Shown: positions 17,980 through 35,648 of the stretch, in pieces
How the letters are laid out: each line of letters begins with the position of its first letter
How positions within the stretch are numbered: position 1 is the stretch's first letter
Assembly: GCA_937120535.1 (NCBI GenBank)
Contig: CAKZJX010000022.1
Span: 9,895-73,894, forward strand
Origin: an uncultured Anaerolineae bacterium
GTDB taxonomy: Bacteria > Chloroflexota > Anaerolineae > Anaerolineales > Villigracilaceae
Length of the DNA stretch: 64,000 bases
Direction of reading: 5' to 3'
Notes under the pieces: model-generated
What the model was told of the DNA's origin: nothing
What the model saw: only the letters and a program-made list of their open reading frames with translations
Databases searched by the model: none
Program-made: the position numbers and the translations under genes

Positions 17980-17987
17980 TAAAATTT

Positions 17988-18151
17988 GGGCTTGTTCAAT
18001 AAATCTCTCTGGATGGTACAAACTATCTCTAGAAGAGCCACAAGCAGGCCGTTTGACCCTTGAATCGGCGGCTGATTGCATCGCTGATCCCCTCCTATGC
18101 TTGCTCTACCAGGCTCTCCTTGCGCTTCAAGAGTGCTTATTGAATAAGCCC
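17988..18151. mobile_element. MITE-like element, family 2, copy A (164 bp)
   Basis: TIRs GGGCTTGTTCAATAA / TTATTGAATAAGCCC (14 of 15 match); 143/164 identical by hand alignment to the reverse complement of 29159-29322. Confidence 0.85.
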
Positions 18152-18240
18152 AGCGAAATTGAGAAACGCTATCCTTCTGCCGGCCCAAGGAGTTGCTGAG
18201 CCATTCCCCAGTTAGGGCACAACGCAGCAAGCGGAAGGGC

Positions 18241-24717: not shown

Positions 24718-24775
24718 CTCATTGCTTGAGCTGCTTATTCGTTGTTTTGCAAGGCAGGAGAACCTGCCAGGAGGG

Positions 24776-27007
24776 ATGCTGATGATCCAAGCCGATCGAG
24801 TCACTCGTACGACTTGCCCCTACTGCGGTGTTGGGTGCACGCTTGAGCTGCACGTCAAGCAGAATTTTATTTACAAGGTCACTTCACCGTTCGATTCGCC
24901 CGTCAACCATGGGAATTTGTGCGTTAAAGGGCGCTTCGGATACGACTTTATTTACCATCCCAATCGGATCACAACGCCGATGGCGAGGCGCTATTTGTTG
25001 CAGAATGATTATCAAGGCGCTCTGTGGAAGACCCGTTATCACGCACCTGAGCTGGGGAATCGTTCGCTGACCAACGGCAACGATTCGCCGACGCCTTGGG
25101 ATTGGGTGGAGACCGACTGGGAGACCGCCCTCAATCTGGCGGCCGATCGCCTGACGCATATTTATCAGCGCGATGGTTCAGACGCCATGGCAGTGTATTG
25201 TTGTGCCAAAGCGACCAACGAGGACAATTATGTGTTGCAGAAAATGTTCCGCGCTCTGTTCCGCACAAATAACGTGGATCATTGCACGCGCTTGTGTCAT
25301 GCCGGCTCGGTCGTTGCGCTCCAACAATCGCTGGGCACATCTGCCATGAGCAACACGGCCTCCCAAGTGATGCTGAACGATGTGTTTATCGTCACTGGTT
25401 CGAACACGACCGAGAATCATCCCATCATTGCCTTACAGATGAAGGCAGCGGTCCGCAAGCGCGGCGCCAAGATGATCGTGGTCGACCCGCGGCGCATTGA
25501 ATTGGTGGACTTTGCGGAGCTGTGGTTGCCTCTCAAGCCGGGCACCAACGTGCCGCTGTTCTCGGCGATGGCGCACGTTATCGTGAAGGAGAACCTAGTG
25601 AATTGGGACTTCGTCCGCACCCGGACCGAAGGGTTCGAAGGGTATGTCGAATCGTTGGAGAAGTTCACGCCGGAATATGCTGAGGCGATCTGCGATGTGC
25701 CGGCCGAGAACATCCGCCAGGCGGCGCGGCTGTATGCGACGGCCAAAAACGCCGCTATTTACTGGGGGATGGGTATTTCGCAACTCTCCCACGGCACGGC
25801 TTCGGCGCTCTCGCTGGTCCATTTAGCGCTCCTCACCGGCCACATCGGGCGCGACGGAACCGGCCTGAACCCCTTGCGAGGTCAAAACAACGTGCAAGGC
25901 GCCAGCGATATGGGAGCCATGCCGTTTCATTATCCAGGTTACATGCTAGTGGATCGGGAGGAGAACGCCGTTCAATGGGAGCGGCTATGGAAGGTGGAAC
26001 CAGGCGGCCTCTCGCGCAAACTCGGCCTGACCACGACGGAAATTCTTGAGCATGCCCATGAAGGCGGAGTACGCGCGCTGTATATCATGGGCGAGAACCC
26101 GATGATGACGGAACCTAACCTGAACAGGACGCGCCAGCACATCGAGCAATTGGAGTTTCTGGTGGTGCAGGACTTGTTCCTGAATGAGACCGGCGTGTAT
26201 GCCGATGTGTTTTTGCCAGCCGCTTCGTTTGCCGAGAAGGACGGGACGTTTACCAACACCGATCGACGGGTGCAGCGCGTTCGTGCAGCGCATCCGCCGC
26301 GGGGTCAGGCTCGACCTGATTGGCAGATCGTCTGCGATCTGGCGAAGCGGATCGAGGCCCGCTTGGGACGTCCAACCTCTGCTGGTTGGGACTATGCCCA
26401 TCCGGAGCAGATCCTGCGCGAGGTGGCGCAGGTTAACCTGGATTATGCCGGCATCACTTATGAGCGCATTGAGAAGGTAGGGCTGCAGTATCCGGCGCCC
26501 ACGCTGGATTATCCCGGCACGCCAACCCTGTTCACGGAGACGTTCCCGCGCGGGCGCGGGCGGTTCATCCCCTTGGATTATGTGCCGGTGATGGAGCAAG
26601 CCGACGACGAGTTTCCGTTCATCTTGACCACAGGCCGGGTGCTCGAGCACTGGCATGGAGGTACGATGACCCGCCACTCGGTCATCGATCAGGTGTATCC
26701 TGAAGCTCGGGTGGAGATTCATCCGGCCGATGCGGAGATCCACGGCATTCGAGATGGCGACCCGGTTCGGGTCCGGAGCCGACGCGGGGAGGTGGTGTTG
26801 CGCGCTTCGGTGACCGAGAAAACGACGGTCGGGGTGGTCTTCATTCCATTTCACTTCGTCGAGGCAGCGGCCAACTTGTTGACCAACGACGCGCTCGATC
26901 CTCAAGCCAAGATTCCGGAGTTCAAAGCTTGTGCGGTGCAGATCTTTCCAGCGCGCGAGACCGATCTGCCCAATCCGGAGGCGATTTTGCGGCGCGGACG
27001 CTATTGA
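24776..27007 (+). CDS. fdhA: Formate dehydrogenase catalytic (Mo/W-bisPGD) subunit, Cys form
   Basis: CPYCGVGC...LCVKG, NVDHCTRLCHA, PLRGQNNVQG, EKDGTFTNTDRRVQ, LTTGRVLEHWH; start ATG 24776 or 24782. Confidence 0.92.
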   Translation: MLMIQADRVTRTTCPYCGVGCTLELHVKQNFIYKVTSPFDSPVNHGNLCVKGRFGYDFIYHPNRITTPMARRYLLQNDYQGALWKTRYHAPELGNRSLTNGNDSPTPWDWVETDWETALNLAADRLTHIYQRDGSDAMAVYCCAKATNEDNYVLQKMFRALFRTNNVDHCTRLCHAGSVVALQQSLGTSAMSNTASQVMLNDVFIVTGSNTTENHPIIALQMKAAVRKRGAKMIVVDPRRIELVDFAELWLPLKPGTNVPLFSAMAHVIVKENLVNWDFVRTRTEGFEGYVESLEKFTPEYAEAICDVPAENIRQAARLYATAKNAAIYWGMGISQLSHGTASALSLVHLALLTGHIGRDGTGLNPLRGQNNVQGASDMGAMPFHYPGYMLVDREENAVQWERLWKVEPGGLSRKLGLTTTEILEHAHEGGVRALYIMGENPMMTEPNLNRTRQHIEQLEFLVVQDLFLNETGVYADVFLPAASFAEKDGTFTNTDRRVQRVRAAHPPRGQARPDWQIVCDLAKRIEARLGRPTSAGWDYAHPEQILREVAQVNLDYAGITYERIEKVGLQYPAPTLDYPGTPTLFTETFPRGRGRFIPLDYVPVMEQADDEFPFILTTGRVLEHWHGGTMTRHSVIDQVYPEARVEIHPADAEIHGIRDGDPVRVRSRRGEVVLRASVTEKTTVGVVFIPFHFVEAAANLLTNDALDPQAKIPEFKACAVQIFPARETDLPNPEAILRRGRY

Positions 27008-27010
27008 GGC

Positions 27011-28246
27011 TTAGTGGCGGGTGGCTAGATCGAGGACCGCGTGGAGCAGGACGTTGGCTCCGTGGGCCAGGTCGTTGGGGTCGGTGTATTCGGCCGGGTT
27101 GTGGCTGATGCCGTCGCGGCTGGGGACGAAGATCATCGCCGCTGGGTATTTGTGGGCCATCAGTTGGGCGTCGTGGCCGGCGCCGGAGATCATCGGGCGG
27201 TAGGAAAGCCCTAGGCGCCGGGCAGCCCGTTCAACCGCTCCGATCACCAGCGGGTCGAAGCGCACCGGCTGAACATGTTCCAGATCGCGCACTTCGATCT
27301 TCACGCCCTCCTCGGCCACCACTTTTTGGAGGTATTCCCTCAGCATGGCTTCGGCGCGTCGCAGGTCACTGGGTTCAGGGTTGCGCAGATCCACGGTGAA
27401 GGCGACTCGGCCGGGGATGACGTTGATGGCGTTGGGTTCGAAGGAGAGGCGGCCGCAGGTGGCACGCTGGGGTTCGCCGAGGGCAGCTGTGATCTCACGC
27501 AGATAGGTGATCACTTTGGCGGCTGCCAGGCCGGCATCGCGACGCATGTCCATCGGGGTGGTGCCGGCGTGGTTGGCAGCGCCAATCACGATGATCTCTA
27601 GCCAGGTGATGCCGGTTACCCCCTCGACGACGCCGATCGTCTGGCCGGCCCGATCGAGCACTGGCCCCTGTTCGATGTGCAGTTCGAGATAGGCGTAGGG
27701 CTCGATGGCGCCGGGTTGCATTGGGCCGGCGTAGCCGATGCGCTGCAGTTCATCGCCGAAGCGAGAGCCGTCCACGCCCCGCATGTCTAATGCTTGCTCT
27801 ATCGGCAGTTCTCCGACGTATACGGCGCTTCCCAGCATGCCAGACGCATATCGCACCCCTTCTTCATTGGTAAAGGCAGCCACGACCAGTGGGCGCAGAG
27901 TTTGCTTGTTGTGTTCGTTCAGCGTAGCAATGCATTCTAAGGCGGCCAGCACACCGTAGGTCCCGTCCAATTTGCCAGCCACGCTCACCGTGTCAATGTG
28001 TGAGCCAAACATGACAGGCAGGCTGCCGGTTTGGCCAGGGCGGATGCCAAAGATGTTCCCAACGCGGTCGATCTGCACCGTCAGGTTGAGCGCTTCCATC
28101 CAACGGACAAGTTGATCGCGCGCCTGTTTATCAGGGTCGGTCAAGGAGAGGCGACTGACGCCTCCGGCTTCCAGAGCACCAATGCGGGCCATTTCGTCCA
28201 AGCGTTCAAGCAAGCGAACTTTGTTGATGCGTAGGCGAGGGGTCAT
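27011..28246 (-). CDS. M20-family Zn amidohydrolase (allantoate / N-carbamoyl-amino acid amidohydrolase type)
   Basis: GSHIDTV, DGTYGVL, NEEGVR, ELHIEQGP, ANHAGTTPM, SGAGHDA, SHNPAE. Confidence 0.9.
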   Translation of the reverse strand: MTPRLRINKVRLLERLDEMARIGALEAGGVSRLSLTDPDKQARDQLVRWMEALNLTVQIDRVGNIFGIRPGQTGSLPVMFGSHIDTVSVAGKLDGTYGVLAALECIATLNEHNKQTLRPLVVAAFTNEEGVRYASGMLGSAVYVGELPIEQALDMRGVDGSRFGDELQRIGYAGPMQPGAIEPYAYLELHIEQGPVLDRAGQTIGVVEGVTGITWLEIIVIGAANHAGTTPMDMRRDAGLAAAKVITYLREITAALGEPQRATCGRLSFEPNAINVIPGRVAFTVDLRNPEPSDLRRAEAMLREYLQKVVAEEGVKIEVRDLEHVQPVRFDPLVIGAVERAARRLGLSYRPMISGAGHDAQLMAHKYPAAMIFVPSRDGISHNPAEYTDPNDLAHGANVLLHAVLDLATRH

Positions 28247-28908
28247 TTGTGTTGGGTCTCCTTTCGGTTGCCGAACGATTGACTTAGGTCAGTGAACAGG
28301 GTTTCGGCGGCATAGGCGCGGTCGGCGACGGGAGAGAGGCGGGCAGCCATGCTCGGTGTGATCAGACGGATGACCGGCCGGCCGCAGAAGTGGCGATGGT
28401 AGAGGCGGTTTGCACCTTCTTCGTCCCACGCCCAGTTGAGATGGGTGTAGCAAGCGGCGTTGAAAGGACGGGTGTAGCCGCGCAACACTTTCGCTTGACG
28501 AATGCTGACAAAATGCTCAAAGTAGGTCATCACTAGCTCGCGCAAGGTCTTGTGAACCGGCTCGCGGAATCCTAGGTTGATGTAGTTGGATTTGGCGATC
28601 GCTCTCCAGCGCCCTTCGATGCGGTAGAGGGCCAACACGTGATCGTCGTCCACGCCAGGATCAGGGACAACATCAATCAGCAGGGGTGGAAAGCCAAAGC
28701 GCCACAGGCAGAGGGCGGCCAAAAAGCCGCCGTCTAGGCAGTGACATTGTCCATCCAGCATCACGTTGAGCGGTGAGCGATTGCGCTCCTCAGCAACATA
28801 GCGCAGCGAGTCGAGGTAATTCTGAATGGCGAAGGGGGTGGTCAGTTGGTGGAATTGCTCTTGGAGGTGGGACGGCAGGCGCAATTCGAATTCGGTCAGG
28901 AACGACAT
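28243..28908 (-). CDS. Conserved protein, vasohibin-like transglutaminase-fold cysteine protease candidate
   Basis: HCLDGG...DDHVLAL..EGRWRAIAKSN..LGFREPVHKTLRELV; GAGG SD before ATG 28908; ATGA overlap with the amidohydrolase. Confidence 0.7.
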   Translation of the reverse strand: MSFLTEFELRLPSHLQEQFHQLTTPFAIQNYLDSLRYVAEERNRSPLNVMLDGQCHCLDGGFLAALCLWRFGFPPLLIDVVPDPGVDDDHVLALYRIEGRWRAIAKSNYINLGFREPVHKTLRELVMTYFEHFVSIRQAKVLRGYTRPFNAACYTHLNWAWDEEGANRLYHRHFCGRPVIRLITPSMAARLSPVADRAYAAETLFTDLSQSFGNRKETQHK

Positions 28909-29158
28909 ACAGAATCCTCGTCTGAAAAGCAGCACAATGATTCTAACGCACAGGGGTGGGTTGCTCTCAAAATGTGATGATTTTGCGATCTATTGACTTG
29001 GAATCCGTGAGGCAGGGCGCCTGATCCGTGTTTCGTTGGCAGGCTAAATTCATCGGAAGTGGGCTCAGGATCGGGCCTACAAGCTCAGGATGCGACTGAA
29101 CCCTTGCCGTCTAGGCAAAATCGAAATTTCAAACGGTGTATTTTGAGGAACTGGAACT

Positions 29159-29322
29159 GGATTTGTTCAATAAGCATCCTTGACGCAAAAGGAGAGGCCG
29201 GTAGAGCAGGCATGGGAGGGGATCAGCGATGGAATCAGCCGCCGATTCAGGGATCAAACGGCCTTCTTGCGGCTCTTCTAGAGACAGTTCGTACCATCCA
29301 AAGAGACTTATTGAACAAGCCC
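29159..29322. mobile_element. MITE-like element, family 2, copy B (164 bp, inverted relative to copy A)
   Basis: Ends GGATTTGTTCAATAAG / CTTATTGAACAAGCCC; gap-free alignment to the reverse complement of copy A. Confidence 0.85.
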
Positions 29323-29331
29323 CAATTTCGC

Positions 29332-29360
29332 TTGACAACCTACTCGACCAGGATTACAAT
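29332..29360 (+). promoter_or_regulatory. Strong sigma70-type promoter of the tRNA operon
   Basis: TTGACA-17 nt-TACAAT, 29 nt upstream of tRNA-Phe. Confidence 0.8.
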
Positions 29361-29389: not shown

Positions 29390-29465
29390 GCCGAGATAGC
29401 TCAGTTGGTAGAGCACGCGACTGAAAATCGCGGTGTCGCCAGTTCGATTCTGGCTCTCGGCACCA
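29390..29465 (+). tRNA. tRNA-Phe(GAA)
   Basis: GCCGAGA/TCTCGGC acceptor stem, CGCGA-CTGAAAA-TCGCG anticodon arm, TTCGA T loop, encoded CCA. Confidence 0.97.
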
Positions 29466-29469
29466 GGAC

Positions 29470-29541
<72 letters not shown>

Positions 29542-29554
29542 CTCAATGTCATAC

Positions 29555-29625
29555 GGCGTCGTGGCCAAGTGGTAAGGCAAGGGTCTGCAAAACCCTGACC
29601 ACGGGTTCGAATCCCGTCGACGCCT
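29555..29625 (+). tRNA. tRNA-Cys(GCA)
   Basis: GGCGTCG/CGACGCC acceptor stem, AGGGT-CTGCAAA-ACCCT anticodon arm; CCA not encoded. Confidence 0.95.
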
Positions 29626-29661
29626 CAGCTACTAGCTTAGATCGTTGCATGCCACCCCTCT

Positions 29662-30125: not shown

Positions 30126-33100
30126 ATGAGATCCTATCCTCCGTTTTATCGTTTCGCCTTCGATATTGCTTCTGAAGGCATCTTTCAAGCCAGCTTCAGA
30201 GGGGGATACATACACGTCAACGCTGCCATGGCTAGAATGTTTGGCTACACTTCACCGAACGAAATGATCGACTCGGTTGAAGATATTGCCCAAGACATCT
30301 TTGTTCTCCCAGACGAATATCGACGTTTCCAGGAAGAACTGAAAACCAAAGGGGCAATTGACCAATTCCGAACTCTACAGAAACGTAAAAATGGAACGAT
30401 CTTCTGGGTCTCGTACCGGGCATACGCCATCCGAGACTCAAAAGGCCGGCTCCGATCGTACATTGGTTTCGTCCAAGATATTACCCAACAAAAAAACATC
30501 GAGCTGGTGTTGGAACGCGTCGATAGCATGCTTCCCTCCCATCAAAGCTTGCTCGAAAACCTCCCCGCCGCTATATACATTGACACAATGAGCCAAGACC
30601 CCACCATAGGCTTCTACATTAGCTCGCACATTAAAACCATTAGCGGATATTCCCCAACCGAATGGAGCGGACGTGGCTTCTGGGCGAAAGTGATTCACCC
30701 CGACGACTACCCGAGCTTTGAGCGAGAAAACGAACGCACCGACCGAACCGGCGATCGCTTTGATATGGAATACCGCCTGATCCACAAAGATGGCCATATC
30801 GTCTGGGTACGCGATATTGCGACGGCCGTATGTGATCCCAAAGGCAAACCGATTTATTGGCAAGGGATCATGGTGGACATTACAGCTCAAAAACGGCTGG
30901 AGGAAACCATCCGCCACAGTGAAAGCCGTTTTCGGAAGGTGTTTCACAACAGCCCGGTAGCTATCTGCATTACCACGCTTGAGGAAGGGATTTTCCTGGA
31001 TGCTAACAAAGCCTATTTGACTCTGTTTGGCGTCTCTCGCGAACAGCTCATCGGTCGTTCGATTGTGGATTTAGGCATCACCGATGCGGCAACCCGTGCT
31101 CGCTGGGTAGCCGACTTACAGGCTGCCGGCGGTTTGCTGCGCAATCAACTGTTTTCGTTTCTCACTATGAACGGCGAGGTCTTACAAACCTTGGCGTTCT
31201 ACGAAATCGTTGAGCTAGAGGGCAAAAAAGCTATCCTCTCGATGTTCAACGACATCACCCCTCGCGTTCAGGCCGAACGTGCTCTGCGCAAGAGCGAAGA
31301 ACGCTATCGAGCCCTTGTCGAGAAATTGCCCGGCATAGTCCTCTTGCGCTCGGCGGAGAACACGCTGGTGACGCTATACATCAGTCCCCAGGTGGAGACC
31401 ATTCTGGGCTACACCTCGGAAGAATGGTTGGCCGATCCCGAATTCTGGGAGAAAGCTCTTCACCCCCTTGACCGAGAACACATCATTGAAAAAATCCGGC
31501 AAGCGACCCAACAGCAAAAGCCCTTTCACGCAGAATATCGCATGCTGAGTCGCTATGGCGCCATCGTTTGGATCTATGAGCAATCCCATCTGATCTACTC
31601 AAATGGTCATCCTACCTATTGGCAAGGATTTCTGCTCGATATTACCAGCAAGCGCGAAGTTCAAGAAGCCCTTGGAGAAGTTGCCGAAGTCTATCGCGGT
31701 CTGTTCGATAGCATCCAAGAAGCCATTTACGTCCAGGATTGGAACGGTCGCATCTTGGATGCCAGTCTGGGAGCCGCCAAGATGTACGGCTATCCCAGAG
31801 AAGCTTTCCTAGGAAAAACCCTGCTCGACTTCGCTGCGCCCGACAAAAACGATATCAACGCCCTGCGCCAAGCGTCAGAACAGGCCTTTGAAGGTATCCC
31901 CCAACAAGTGGAATTCTGGGGGCAACGCAGCAATGGCGAGATCTTCCCTCAAGAGGCTCGCTTCTACAAAGGCAATTACTTCGGGCAAGATGTGATCTTC
32001 GTCATTGCCCAAGACATCACTGAGAGAAAAAAGGCTCAAGAGGCCCTCGAGCGCCGGTTAAGAGAACTATCTATCCTACACGAATTGGCGCTGGAAGCCG
32101 GCCGTATTTTGAACGAAGATAAATTGATCAAGCGCGCCGGCACAATTATCCAACGCATCCTGTCCCCCGATCGGTGCACGTTCATCCTACTCAGCAATGA
32201 TGAGCGCTATCTCTATGTCCATCCGGCATCTCTGGGTCATTCGGGTGAACAGCAAACAATCTATCCGATCGAACACGGAACCATAGGGGCTGTGGTCATC
32301 ACCGGCCAGCCAGTCAGGGTTCACGACACGCGACGCAGCAAACACTATCCTCCTCTAGATGCAGAGATGCGTTCTGTGCTCTGCGTTCCGATGAAAATCG
32401 GTCAGCGGGTGATCGGGGTGATCAACCTTGAAAGCGCTCGGCCCGGCCAATTTACCGAAGATGACGAAAGGTTGTTGACCACCATTGCCGGCCAACTAGG
32501 GCCGGCCATCGAACGACTGCGAACCGAACGAGCCGAACGCGAACAGCGTCTGCTTGCTGAAGCGTTGCGAGACATTGCCTCTGCCCTGAACAGCACTCTG
32601 GACTTCAATACTGTCCTTGATCGCATCTTGGAGAATATCGGGCGCGTTGTTCCTAGCCTTGCCGCCAGCATTATGTTGATAGAAGACGACATGGCTCGTC
32701 CGATCCGTCATCGCGGTTTTTCCGAACGCGGACTGGGAGACTGGATGGACTCCTTGCGCCTAGACTGTCGAGCCATTCCCAACCTCCGGCGCATCCTGGA
32801 AACTGGCCTGCCCGATCTCATCCCCGATACCCACAATTGTCCAGAATGGATCGTCTTCCCCCAGACGGCGTGGATCCGCTCCTACCTAGCTGCGCCGATT
32901 AAGACCGATCACAAGATCATTGGCCTTCTCTCGTTGGATCACGATCAGCCCAATTTCTTCCAACAGCAAGATGCCGAACGGTTGGTGGCTTTTGCCAACC
33001 AGGCGGCCTCGGCCATCGAAAACGCTCGGCGCTACGAAGAGGAAGTCCGTCGCGCTCGCATCATTGAAACTCTGGCTGAGATCGCCAACCTTATCGCCAC

Positions 33101-35648
33101 CAACCATGACACGGAATTCCTCATCAACGAGATCGCTCAACGTTCTCTCCAACTGCTGCGAGCTAGAAATGTGGCTGTATATCTGATGGAAGAGGACAAC
33201 CAGACCCTCAAAGTAGTAGCCGCCAAAGGAGACTACTCCCAGACCCTGCTCTCTCATACCATCACGGTCGGTCAAGGGATCACCGGGCATGTGGTCCAGT
33301 CGGGCCGAGCCGAGATCATTCCCCAAATTGACCTTGATCCCCGCCGACGACACATCCCAGGCACCCCTCAAGAAGAACCTCCCGAAACCATGATGTCGGC
33401 GCCGCTGTGGTTGCGTGACAAAGTGATCGGTGCGATCAACGCCTGGCGTTTGCGAGAACATGGGGTTTTCACTGAAACCGAACTCAATTTTCTCGTGAGC
33501 ATCGCTCATCAAATCTCCATTGCCATCGAAGCCGGTCGGTTGTTCCAAGAGCTGGCACGTCGCGCTCGCGAGGCCGAAGCCATCGCCGAGGTGGGCCGGC
33601 AAATCTCCGCCACGTTGGACTTGAACGTAGTCTTGGAACGAATTGCCACCTATGCCAAGGAACTCCTACGCGCCGAAACCAGTGCTGTGTACATTGCCGA
33701 GCCGAACTCAACCCACTTGCACGCCGTGGCTGCACTTGGCAAGGATGCGGAGGCGCTAAAAAACGATCCGCTCTCCCTAGGCCACGGCATTCTCGGCAAT
33801 GTCGCCCTTCAAAAACGTGGCGAGATGATCAACAATGCTGAAAGCGATCCGCGCGCCCTCATCGTCCAAGGCACCGAAGCCACGCCGTTTGAACACATCA
33901 TGGGAGTTCCGATCCTGATCCAGGACGAATTGACCGGATTGCTGGCTGTCTGGCGTACTGGTCCGGGGCAAGAATTCAATCCGGCCGAATTGACCTTCTT
34001 GACCAACCTAGCTCAACAAGCAGCGATTGCTATTCAAAATGCCCGTCTCTTCCATGCAGAACAACAGCGCAGACAAGAAGCCGAAACCCTGCGTGAAGCC
34101 ACTGCGATTGTGGCCGCCACCCTAGACCTGAATCGCACCATTCAGGTCATTCTCGACCAACTAGCTAAGGTATTGGAGTATGACAGCGCTTCGATTCAAC
34201 TCTTGCGCAACGGCTGGCTAGAAATCGTGGGTGGGCATGGCTGGCCAAGCGATCAACCCTTGATCGGGATGGGATTCCAAATCCCAGGCGACAATCCGAA
34301 CACTCTTGTCATCCAACAACGGCGCCCCTTGATTGTCAATGTCTCCCAAAGCCCCCACTTGCTATTCCGACAGCCGCCCCATCATCATATCAAACACTGG
34401 CTAGGGGTGCCGCTGATCGCACGCGGCGAGACCATCGGTATGCTCACCGTAGAACGTTTTACCGAAGACGCTTTCAACGAAGAACACATTCGGCTGGTTA
34501 CGGCCTACGCCAACCAAGCTGCTATTGCAATTGATAACGCTCAACTGCATGAGCAACTTGAAAAACAGATCCGTCGTCTAACTTCCTTGCGTGAGATAGA
34601 TATCGCAATTGCTTCTAGTTTTGACATACGGGTAACGCTAGCTATCTTGCTCGAAAACGCCCTATCTCAATTGCGCGCCGATGCCATGTCCGTCTTGATA
34701 CACAACTCGGCCATGCAAGCTCTAGAAACTGTAGCGTCACTCGGGTTTAGAAATCCGTTGAGAAAACGCCGCGTTCACCTTGGTGAAGAGCTGGCTGGCC
34801 AGGTTGGCATCCAGCGCAAACCCTTGCAGCTTCACCAGATCAGTCAACTTCCCCAACACAGTTATATCCCCTGGCTTGCCGAAGAAGAATTCTCAACCTA
34901 TATCGCTTATCCCCTGATTAGCAAGGGACAACTCAAGGGCGTCCTAGAAGCCTTCTTCCGAACCACTTTCTCCCCCGACCGTGACTGGCTCGACTACATG
35001 CAAACCCTGGCCGGCCAAGCTGCTATCGCCGTGGACAACACCGAATTGTTTGAAAACCTACAGAGAACCAATCAAGAGCTGGCCCTGGCTTATGACACCA
35101 CCCTGGAGGGCTGGGGACGGGCGCTAGAGCTGCGCGACGAAGAGACCGAGGGCCACACCCGTCGCGTAGCGGAGCTCACCATCCGCCTGGCGCGCCGAAT
35201 CAACCTCAGCGATAGCGAGCTCGTTCACATCCGAAGAGGGGCCCTGCTGCATGACATCGGAAAAATGGCCATTCCCGACCGCATTCTGCGCAAGACTGGT
35301 CCGCTGGATGATGCCGAATGGGAACTGATGCATAAACATCCGATCTACGCCTACCAGTTGCTCTACCCCATCACCTATCTGAGACCTGCGCTCGATATTC
35401 CCCTCTACCACCACGAGAAATGGGACGGGACCGGCTATCCTTACGGGCTCAAAGGGGAACAGATCCCATTGCCGGCCCGCATCTTCGCCGTGGTAGATGT
35501 CTGGGATGCCCTGCTCTCCGACCGACCTTACCGAAAGACCTGGTCGCGAGAACAAGCGATGGAATATGTTCGCAACGAAGCGGGTAGCCGCTTTGATCCG
35601 CGGGTTGTGGAAGTCTTCCTAAAGATGATCGAAGAAGAAAACATATAA
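30126..35648 (+). CDS. Multi-sensor HD-GYP phosphodiesterase (about 5 PAS, 6 GAF, HD-GYP)
   Basis: 1840 aa; repeated PAS/PAC (IHPDD, HPLDRE) and GAF (LCVPMKIG, YLAAPI, MSAPLW, MGVPIL, LGVPLI, IAYPLI) units; LLHDIGK...HHEKWDGTGYP. Confidence 0.9.
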   Translation: MRSYPPFYRFAFDIASEGIFQASFRGGYIHVNAAMARMFGYTSPNEMIDSVEDIAQDIFVLPDEYRRFQEELKTKGAIDQFRTLQKRKNGTIFWVSYRAYAIRDSKGRLRSYIGFVQDITQQKNIELVLERVDSMLPSHQSLLENLPAAIYIDTMSQDPTIGFYISSHIKTISGYSPTEWSGRGFWAKVIHPDDYPSFERENERTDRTGDRFDMEYRLIHKDGHIVWVRDIATAVCDPKGKPIYWQGIMVDITAQKRLEETIRHSESRFRKVFHNSPVAICITTLEEGIFLDANKAYLTLFGVSREQLIGRSIVDLGITDAATRARWVADLQAAGGLLRNQLFSFLTMNGEVLQTLAFYEIVELEGKKAILSMFNDITPRVQAERALRKSEERYRALVEKLPGIVLLRSAENTLVTLYISPQVETILGYTSEEWLADPEFWEKALHPLDREHIIEKIRQATQQQKPFHAEYRMLSRYGAIVWIYEQSHLIYSNGHPTYWQGFLLDITSKREVQEALGEVAEVYRGLFDSIQEAIYVQDWNGRILDASLGAAKMYGYPREAFLGKTLLDFAAPDKNDINALRQASEQAFEGIPQQVEFWGQRSNGEIFPQEARFYKGNYFGQDVIFVIAQDITERKKAQEALERRLRELSILHELALEAGRILNEDKLIKRAGTIIQRILSPDRCTFILLSNDERYLYVHPASLGHSGEQQTIYPIEHGTIGAVVITGQPVRVHDTRRSKHYPPLDAEMRSVLCVPMKIGQRVIGVINLESARPGQFTEDDERLLTTIAGQLGPAIERLRTERAEREQRLLAEALRDIASALNSTLDFNTVLDRILENIGRVVPSLAASIMLIEDDMARPIRHRGFSERGLGDWMDSLRLDCRAIPNLRRILETGLPDLIPDTHNCPEWIVFPQTAWIRSYLAAPIKTDHKIIGLLSLDHDQPNFFQQQDAERLVAFANQAASAIENARRYEEEVRRARIIETLAEIANLIATNHDTEFLINEIAQRSLQLLRARNVAVYLMEEDNQTLKVVAAKGDYSQTLLSHTITVGQGITGHVVQSGRAEIIPQIDLDPRRRHIPGTPQEEPPETMMSAPLWLRDKVIGAINAWRLREHGVFTETELNFLVSIAHQISIAIEAGRLFQELARRAREAEAIAEVGRQISATLDLNVVLERIATYAKELLRAETSAVYIAEPNSTHLHAVAALGKDAEALKNDPLSLGHGILGNVALQKRGEMINNAESDPRALIVQGTEATPFEHIMGVPILIQDELTGLLAVWRTGPGQEFNPAELTFLTNLAQQAAIAIQNARLFHAEQQRRQEAETLREATAIVAATLDLNRTIQVILDQLAKVLEYDSASIQLLRNGWLEIVGGHGWPSDQPLIGMGFQIPGDNPNTLVIQQRRPLIVNVSQSPHLLFRQPPHHHIKHWLGVPLIARGETIGMLTVERFTEDAFNEEHIRLVTAYANQAAIAIDNAQLHEQLEKQIRRLTSLREIDIAIASSFDIRVTLAILLENALSQLRADAMSVLIHNSAMQALETVASLGFRNPLRKRRVHLGEELAGQVGIQRKPLQLHQISQLPQHSYIPWLAEEEFSTYIAYPLISKGQLKGVLEAFFRTTFSPDRDWLDYMQTLAGQAAIAVDNTELFENLQRTNQELALAYDTTLEGWGRALELRDEETEGHTRRVAELTIRLARRINLSDSELVHIRRGALLHDIGKMAIPDRILRKTGPLDDAEWELMHKHPIYAYQLLYPITYLRPALDIPLYHHEKWDGTGYPYGLKGEQIPLPARIFAVVDVWDALLSDRPYRKTWSREQAMEYVRNEAGSRFDPRVVEVFLKMIEEENI

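Follow-up and report, generated by a model that had tools for sequence, protein, structure and literature searches.

In a 64,000-nucleotide stretch of DNA from an uncultured Anaerolineae bacterium (the window), an open reading frame of 221 codons ends inside the start of an M20 amidase gene. It raises two questions: what kind of enzyme does it encode, and does its overlap with the amidase gene signify a common function? The original prediction described a bacterial vasohibin-like protease that is translationally coupled to the amidohydrolase, and proposed a peptidase or amidase that acts on a C-terminal residue. The features concerned are as follows.

28243..28908, (-) strand: gene for a CPR-C4-family (vasohibin-like, transglutaminase-fold) predicted cysteine hydrolase, 221 aa, ATG start
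28915..28919, (-) strand: Shine-Dalgarno sequence GAGGA, 6 nt before the ATG at 28908
28243..28246, (-) strand: ATGA stop/start overlap of the protease and M20 genes, 4 bases
27011..28246, (-) strand: M20 amidase gene (hydantoinase/carbamoylase / allantoate amidohydrolase family), 411 aa
24722..27007, (+) strand: molybdopterin oxidoreductase gene (formate-dehydrogenase-like), convergent

The reading frame is intact, has a good Shine-Dalgarno sequence and retains every catalytic residue. An alternative start, a GTG at 28935, is less likely than the ATG at 28908, because GAGGA lies 6 nt before the latter and relatives align from residue 1. No signal peptide is evident in the 221-aa protein, and searches of Pfam, NCBIfam, PADLOC and PHROGs returned no match to it.

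Membership of the CPR-C4 family

The product belongs to the CPR-C4 family, to which it adds an ordinary new member from the Chloroflexota; crystal structures are already available (7OB6, 7OB7 and 7PJO; Cornish, Lange, Aevarsson & Pohl, J Biol Chem 2022, PMC9108980). A phmmer search of the PDB matched CPR-C4 over residues 13-160 (E=1.1e-26), and a profile built from 45 relatives matched it over residues 1-203 (E=5.4e-58). The AF2 model of the protein (pLDDT 95.4, pTM 0.92) likewise has CPR-C4 as its first-ranking Foldseek match (TMq 0.80-0.82, with 0.82 for 7OB6; E~1e-17; rmsd 2.3-3.1 Å over 207-212 columns). In the model, DSSP assigns a helix to residues 57-70, with Cys57 at its N-terminus, and a strand to residues 90-97, with His90 at its start; this is the layout of the transglutaminase-like superfamily, a Cys at a helix N-terminus and a His on the following beta-sheet. 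Matches to Transglut_core were found in 12 of the 45 relatives (best 3e-5).

The protein resembles CPR-C4 in its length of 221 aa, in homology over the full length, in the positions of the Cys/His/Leu triad, in having no signal peptide and in lying in a gene neighbourhood that is not conserved. It differs in that identity is ~29%, the host belongs to the Chloroflexota (Anaerolineae) rather than to the CPR, Ser107 stands where CPR-C4 has Thr, Ala occupies the position of CPR-C4 S108, Gly113 replaces a common Arg, and Arg102 replaces a near-invariant Gly. CPR-C4 itself is reported as a homodimer with a positively charged pocket, in a family that its authors named 'CP01A' (PMC9108980). It carries a tri-aspartate Zn site (D83, D92 and D182), which according to the authors is not required family-wide (PMC9108980). 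In the present protein, the first two aspartates have aligned counterparts in D79 and D89; the region of D182 is poorly aligned, with D162 as a candidate for the third ligand.

The vasohibin reading is right, but the link had already been published, with crystal structures, in 2022: the structure of CPR-C4 was described as remotely homologous to that of VASH1/2, on which its C61-H93-L115(carbonyl) triad superposes (PMC9108980). The profile and structure searches proposed at the outset as the test of this reading did return vasohibin and transglutaminase-fold matches. Apart from CPR-C4, the only PDB matches of the profile were VASH1 chains, at E~0.06 and over the segment from the His strand to the Leu; in Foldseek the 23 structural matches after CPR-C4 were all VASH1 or VASH2 chains (E 1.8e-5 to 3.1e-4, probability 1.0, TMq 0.38-0.49). 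The eukaryotic vasohibins are the closest structural relatives outside the family. With the human vasohibins, which are tubulinyl-Tyr carboxypeptidases (PF14822), the protein shares the transglutaminase-like core fold and the Cys at a helix N-terminus, whereas the common core extends over only ~126-141 aligned columns at 13-19% identity, and the host would be expected to lack tubulin. The bacterial family is also described as lacking the SVBP-binding helices of VASH and as forming homodimers (PMC9108980). At the level of Pfam, the protein had no match to the Vasohibin model (PF14822) even at E<=1, leaving it short of the gathering threshold, and 19 of the 45 relatives had sub-threshold matches (best E=0.0049).

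After VASH1/2 the Foldseek matches ran through LapG, PNGase and arylamine N-acetyltransferases, with transglutaminases also among the fold neighbours. LapG (BTLCP; 4FGP, 4FGQ) is, like this protein, a bacterial transglutaminase-fold Cys-His peptidase (E 7e-4, TM ~0.4). Unlike it, LapG is periplasmic and calcium-dependent, with a Cys-His-Asp triad and a defined adhesin substrate, and sequence similarity between the two is not detectable.

The family is without a model in Pfam and NCBIfam; it is widespread in bacteria and patchily distributed. Matches at E<=1e-3 fall into 803 clusters (50% identity). Of 41 relatives, 20 have the gene, as do 20 of the 301 genomes from the phylum. A homologue is found in a cultured relative, Pelolinea submarina MO-CFX1 (NZ_AP018437.1, 420490-433059).

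Catalytic residues, chemistry and an unusual arginine

The four residues on which the original prediction rested, and a fifth discussed below, are encoded as follows.

28738..28740, (-) strand: Cys57 codon TGC; first residue of helix 57-70 and predicted nucleophile; counterpart of C61 in CPR-C4 and C169 in VASH1
28639..28641, (-) strand: His90 codon CAC; first residue of strand 90-97 and predicted general base; counterpart of H93 in CPR-C4 and H204 in VASH1
28588..28590, (-) strand: Ser107 codon TCC, in a conserved K-S-N motif; equivalent to VASH1 S221 and CPR-C4 T110
28573..28575, (-) strand: Leu112 codon CTA; equivalent to CPR-C4 L115 and VASH1 L226
28603..28605, (-) strand: Arg102 codon AGA; Gly in nearly all other sequences, the substitution being unique to this copy

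The predicted spacing C-x32-H-x16-S-x4-L is borne out: the expression C.{32}H.{16}S.{4}L picks out residues 57-112 (C57, H90, S107 and L112), and both sequence strings quoted with it occur as given. The VASH1 string given for comparison (GRYGALGMSRREDLMYKPPAFRTLSELV) reads as it does in VASH1 PDB chains, in the HMMER alignment S107 and L112 pair with the VASH1 Ser and Leu, and the His-Ser (17) and Ser-Leu (5) spacings are identical in the two proteins. By alignment, C57, H90 and L112 appear to correspond to the CPR-C4 triad C61/H93/L115, in which the third member, as for VASH1 L226, is a backbone carbonyl (PMC9108980). By itself a Cys-His-Ser-Leu motif carries little information; the match to the family exceeds chance because of the homology statistics (phmmer, profile and Foldseek) and not because of the motif alone.

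Conservation was assessed in a set of 108 sequences, comprising 107 diverse representatives of 50%-identity clusters and this protein. The position of C57 is Cys in 102 (invariantly so in A1 and A2), that of H90 is His in 107, position 107 is Ser or Thr in 107, and that of L112 is Leu in 91 and otherwise C, I, M or V. K106 and N108, which flank Ser107, are kept in 101 and 95 sequences, respectively, and R115 and E124 in all 108.

We consider the protein very probably a cytoplasmic CPR-C4-family cysteine hydrolase of transglutaminase fold, whose adjacency to the M20 gene is incidental. If its homologues, CPR-C4 as crystallised and VASH1/2, are a guide, the predicted nucleophile Cys57, at its helix N-terminus, would be deprotonated by His90 of the neighbouring beta-strand; the backbone carbonyl of Leu112 would orient His90, possibly with help from the Ser107 hydroxyl; and a thioester acyl-enzyme intermediate would form and then be hydrolysed by water. 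The conserved basic residues K106, R115 and R123 fit the positively charged pocket of CPR-C4, which suggests that the putative substrate is an acidic peptide or another carboxylate-bearing compound.

What has been published for the family is generic proteolysis by CPR-C4, and the specificity for a C-terminal residue proposed at the outset is a prediction. CPR-C4 degrades BODIPY-casein slowly, with cleavage rising with concentration and time; the controls were non-proteolytic, and the available text of the report mentions no active-site mutant control (PMC9108980). Peptidase may therefore not be the true activity, since the data concern a labelled casein and, as far as that text goes, come with no mention of such a control. 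Members of the family could instead be some other kind of transglutaminase-fold thiol enzyme (an amidase or deamidase, isopeptidase, acyltransferase or transglutaminase) whose target is a small molecule or a protein side chain. PNGase, transglutaminases and arylamine N-acetyltransferases stand beside LapG among the fold neighbours past the vasohibins, the sole published activity is the slow breakdown of a surrogate (PMC9108980), and the family has no model in Pfam or NCBIfam, nor a physiological substrate known for it. We nonetheless think this unlikely: the nearest structural relatives of known chemistry, VASH1/2 and LapG, are peptidases, the casein cleavage grew with CPR-C4 concentration and time, and the Cys-His-Leu(carbonyl) geometry is that of VASH1/2 (PMC9108980).

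This copy has several changes of its own. At position 102, all but one of the 120 closest sequences have Gly, as do 106 of the set of 108, and two further substitutions, I71F and Y175C, are unique among the same 120. Position 113 is Arg in 92 of the 108 and Gly in this protein's subfamily. Given Arg102 and the subfamily Gly113, the pocket, or even the activity, may differ. VASH1 also has Gly at the position equivalent to 102 (GRYGALG).

One could go further and suppose that this copy is impaired or decaying through the Gly102-to-Arg change, and that the M20 gene merely uses its transcript. Arg102 occurs in no other of the 120 closest sequences and is one of just two non-Gly residues among the 108, I71F and Y175C accompany it, and the gene is dispensable in many relatives, as the distribution given above indicates. 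Decay is nevertheless distinctly improbable for a reading frame that is intact, well provided with a Shine-Dalgarno sequence and in possession of all its catalytic residues. The AF2 model is also confident, although AF2 is insensitive to point changes, and Arg102 could be an assembly error in the draft genome.

The M20 gene and other neighbours

The M20 protein matches Pfam Peptidase_M20 (3.5e-30), the NCBIfam allantoate amidohydrolase subfamily NF006769 (478.8 bits, cut-off 452) and also the hydantoinase/carbamoylase family TIGR01879. The overlap claimed for the two genes is present: the + strand reads tcat at 28243-28246, the stop TGA of the protease gene occupying 28245..28243 and the ATG of the M20 gene 28246..28244. 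The 3' end of the protease gene contains an AAGGAG (28258-28263), 11 nt ahead of the M20 ATG. The 4-bp overlap and this internal AAGGAG lead us to predict that the two genes are co-transcribed, and probably translationally coupled, in this genome, and so expressed together in this organism.

A functional link between the two enzymes is not supported by this overlap. We searched for the M20 protein by tblastn in 160 related loci (80 from genomes and 80 from metagenomes). A homologue lay within 6 kb in 2 of the 160 and was adjacent in none, adjacency being confined to this genome. The two loci belong to sister species, in which the M20 orthologue follows on the same strand, after 0.95 kb in one and 2.5 kb in the other, behind genes for PPK2, an RRM protein and an SRPBCC protein; in one of them (L015) the order protease-PPK2-M20 is tightly packed, with gaps of 14 and 3 bp. 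When the whole genomes of relatives were searched, no M20 orthologue was found in 8 same-genus genomes that have the protease, nor in most of the relatives that carry it. In four genomes of the same genus (G001, G007, G011 and G012) the protease gene is instead directly convergent with the formate-dehydrogenase-like gene.

A dedicated two-step pathway, in which, for example, the protease sets free an amino acid, either C-terminal or N-modified, for the amidase to hydrolyse, would account for the ATGA overlap, the AAGGAG, and the same-strand arrangement in the two sister species with the tight packing of L015, but it is very unlikely when adjacency recurs in 0 of 160 loci, eight same-genus genomes have the protease with no M20 orthologue, four have it directly against the formate-dehydrogenase-like gene, the intervening PPK2, RRM and SRPBCC genes are functionally unrelated, and the published survey of CPR-C4 likewise found no conserved or informative gene neighbours (PMC9108980). 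Because the pairing is not conserved in related loci or same-genus genomes, the coupling carries no functional weight; we read the adjacency as an accident of gene order, local and at the level of the genus, and not as a functional two-enzyme unit.

Other candidate partners fared no better. Clustering of neighbouring ORFs across the 80 genome and 80 metagenome loci gave local synteny only: the largest clusters covered at most ~18 of 80 genome loci and at most 6 of 80 metagenome loci, counts obtained with a crude ORF caller that also picked up antisense ORFs in GC-rich DNA. The genes in local synteny encode YigZ/IMPACT, Zwf-Pgl-Gnd, a MacB-type ABC system, an SDR, an FAD oxidase and PPK2. Same-strand downstream genes elsewhere (HhH-GPD, Imm5-like, PhyH, UbiA, FGE-sulfatase, FtsW-PBP, LuxR and PPK2) are unrelated to one another.

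Two partners were set aside on co-occurrence, and neither association is present in the Chloroflexota. A RimK-type ATP-grasp tail ligase, a counterpart by analogy with TTL/VASH, had no strong match in 10 same-genus genomes that bear the protease, and many RimK-bearing genomes are without the protease. A SET methyltransferase gene lies on another contig of this genome; SET occurs in 18 of 20 genomes of the family-level group f1, with or without the protease, and outside f1 in only 1 of 11 protease-positive genomes.

Meaning for the family

The locus gives no help with the substrate or role of the CPR-C4 family, since its sole distinctive feature, the coupling to M20, is not conserved. If in this Anaerolineae genus protease-(PPK2)-M20 were a lineage-specific operon, with the vasohibin-like enzyme acting on an acidic peptide or protein tail, from which it would cut a terminal residue or an amide, and the M20 enzyme processing what is released, it would offer a first physiological handle on the substrate of the family, but we rate the chance of this as very small. 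A vasohibin-type catalytic signature in a bacterial reading frame was recognised correctly from the sequence alone, and proteins of this family could be named 'CPR-C4-family cysteine protease' instead of hypothetical protein.

The gene, its start and its overlap

The protease gene is the first of three closely packed genes, located as follows.

28243..28908, minus strand: protease gene, 221 amino acids
27011..28246, minus strand: M20 amidase gene of the hydantoinase/carbamoylase / allantoate amidohydrolase family (Pfam, NCBIfam, TIGR01879)
24722..27007, convergent to the M20 gene: molybdopterin oxidoreductase (FDH-like) gene

The C-x32-H-x16-S-x4-L motif falls at C57, H90, S107 and L112 of the protease protein. 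A GAGGA (28915-28919) lies 6 nt upstream of the ATG at 28908; because of this spacing, and because relatives align from residue 1, that ATG was preferred as the start to an upstream GTG at 28935. The protease stop overlaps the M20 start in an ATGA at 28243-28246, an arrangement that implies co-expression of the two genes in this organism, and an AAGGAG is placed 11 nt 5' of the M20 start. The M20 product matches Pfam Peptidase_M20 (3.5e-30), TIGR01879 (416 bits) and NCBIfam NF006769 (478.8 bits; cut-off 452), and 3 bp separate the end of its gene from the stop of the convergent oxidoreductase gene. Every detail observed in the original prediction (reading frame, Cys-His-Ser-Leu motif, overlap and amidohydrolase neighbour) was thus confirmed.

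The surrounding DNA holds a 172-nt inverted repeat (17982-18153 and 29157-29328, 87% complementary), which may be related to the unusual local gene order; the 11-kb block between its copies carries the protease, M20, FDH-like and EamA genes. On the plus strand, divergent from the protease gene, tRNA-Phe(GAA), tRNA-Gly(GCC) and tRNA-Cys(GCA) genes form a cluster (29390-29626). A sigma-70 promoter close to consensus (TTGACA-17-TACAAT) is found at 29332-29360. Positions 30126-35648 encode an 1840-amino-acid cytoplasmic sensor that combines multiple PAS and six GAF domains with an HD domain of HD-GYP type at its C-terminus.

Proposed pairing with the M20 amidase and distribution of the family

Gene neighbourhoods were compared at 160 loci carrying protease homologues, 80 from distinct Anaerolineae genomes and 80 metagenomic, the latter from a more divergent alignment; conclusions on M20 are based on tblastn with the M20 protein, not on ORF calls. 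M20 homologues were found in the 6-kb flanks of just two loci, 2.5 kb downstream of the protease gene in L011 (protease-PPK2-RRM-SRPBCC-small protein-M20) and 0.95 kb downstream in L015 (protease-PPK2-M20-GGDEF, then a convergent FDH-like gene), and adjoined the protease gene in none of the 160. Four genomes of the same genus (G001, G007, G011 and G012) have the protease gene directly convergent with the FDH-like gene, without M20, and whole-genome searches found no M20 orthologue in eight same-genus protease carriers (these four and G002, G003, G005 and G010). Judged by these phyletic distributions and gene orders, protease and amidase are unlikely to form a functional unit, and the operon proposed in the original prediction is not supported. 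Most likely, members of the genus have differentially lost genes that lay between the protease and FDH-like genes.

Same-strand downstream genes at other loci are mutually unrelated (HhH-GPD glycosylase, Imm5-like, PhyH, UbiA, FGE-sulfatase, FtsW-PBP, LuxR regulator), and some of them also overlap the protease homologue by 4 bp. Clustering of ORFs from all 160 loci, with an ORF caller that is crude in GC-rich DNA, gave local synteny alone and no partner recurring in the divergent set.

The PPK2 polyphosphate kinase gene is close to the protease gene in six loci, which looks like local synteny only. It lies on the same strand 3' of the protease gene in two sister species, with gaps of 14 and 24 bp (regions 6001-8831 in L015 and 1781-3417 in L011); the L015 M20 gene starts 3 bp after it. 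In three of the 80 metagenome loci (including L149, 828-1562), the protease homologue is followed on its own strand by a Sir2-family deacylase-like ORF, too few cases to interpret.

Distribution of the protease gene is patchy, with carriers making up 20 of 41 close relatives and, in a sample of the Chloroflexota, 20 of 301 genomes (12 of 171 genera). Two genomes, G012 and G013, each have an orthologue plus a second, divergent match (37-39% identity), and the sole match in G008 is divergent (35%); the corresponding loci are L102, L101 and L098. A RimK-type ATP-grasp tail ligase, considered as a counterpart by analogy with the TTL/VASH cycle, was rejected because ten protease carriers of the same genus have no strong match to RimK. 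The SET gene of this genome sits on a different contig from the protease gene. In f1, the family-level group to which this genome belongs, 18 of the 20 genomes sampled have SET genes, regardless of the protease and often in 2-4 copies; outside f1, one of 11 protease carriers does. SET-domain genes are rare in control genomes (1/14). A pairing of the protease with a SET methyltransferase thus does not hold for Chloroflexota.

Fold, conserved residues and proposed mechanism

No model in Pfam, NCBIfam, PADLOC or PHROGs matched the protease protein. Its clear PDB homologue is CPR-C4 (7OB6, 7OB7, 7PJO; phmmer E=1.1e-26), and a profile of 45 relatives matches CPR-C4 over positions 1-203 (5.4e-58). 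Other PDB matches of this profile were VASH1 chains only, and weak (E about 0.06); they span the segment from which vasohibin similarity was originally proposed and pair S107/L112 with the VASH1 Ser/Leu. Sub-threshold matches to Pfam Vasohibin were seen in 19 of the 45 relatives and to Transglut_core in 12.

AlphaFold2, run on the alignment of these 45 sequences, gave a high-confidence model (pLDDT 95.4, pTM 0.92). In it, helix 57-70 has Cys57 at its N-terminus and strand 90-97 begins with His90, a modeled placement that matches the papain and transglutaminase fold arrangement. Foldseek against the PDB ranked five CPR-C4 chains first (TM 0.80-0.82, E about 1e-17), then 23 VASH1/VASH2 chains (E 1.8e-5 to 3.1e-4, probability 1.0), then LapG, PNGase, transglutaminases and arylamine N-acetyltransferases, so that the predicted vasohibin-like fold is borne out.

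In an exhaustive HMMER search, 803 clusters at 50% identity matched with E<=1e-3, and 433 matched at 1e-10. Conservation was scored in the protease protein and 107 full-length representatives.

Conserved residues, numbered as in the protease protein (n = 108)
Cys57: 102/108
Asp87: 105/108
His90: 107/108
Lys106: 101/108
Ser/Thr107: 107/108
Leu112: 91/108 (remainder C/I/M/V)
Arg115: 108/108
Arg123: 106/108
Glu124: 108/108

Homology, fold and conserved triad positions are established by these comparisons. The substitutions at Leu112 are as expected of a backbone-carbonyl role. Position 113 is Gly throughout the Anaerolineae subfamily and Arg in 92 of 108 sequences. This copy has Arg102 (codon AGA, 28603-28605) where 106 of 108 sequences, 119 of the 120 closest sequences and VASH1 have Gly; I71F and Y175C are likewise found in it alone. 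Relaxed selection, a functional shift or assembly error could be the cause.

The source paper describes CPR-C4, from a CPR bacterium of a hot spring, as a homodimer of 221 amino acids (the length of the protease protein), with a Cys61-His93-Leu115(carbonyl) triad, a positively charged pocket, a stabilizing tri-Asp Zn site and, from its crystal structure, remote structural homology to human VASH1/2 (Cornish et al., J Biol Chem 2022, PMC9108980). By analogy with CPR-C4 and VASH1/2, Cys57 and His90 would act as thiolate and imidazolium, the Leu112 carbonyl, possibly together with Ser107, would orient His90, catalysis would pass through a thioester intermediate, and the conserved Lys and Arg may recognize an acidic or carboxylate-bearing substrate. 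CPR-C4 degraded labelled casein, an assay for which the available part of the paper mentions no active-site mutant control, so non-peptidase thiol-hydrolase activity is a live alternative to this peptidase reading (PMC9108980).

Its authors also report the family in non-CPR bacteria and found gene neighbourhoods uninformative as to function (PMC9108980). The vasohibin link rediscovers an already published family, of which the protease protein is a new, slightly atypical member.
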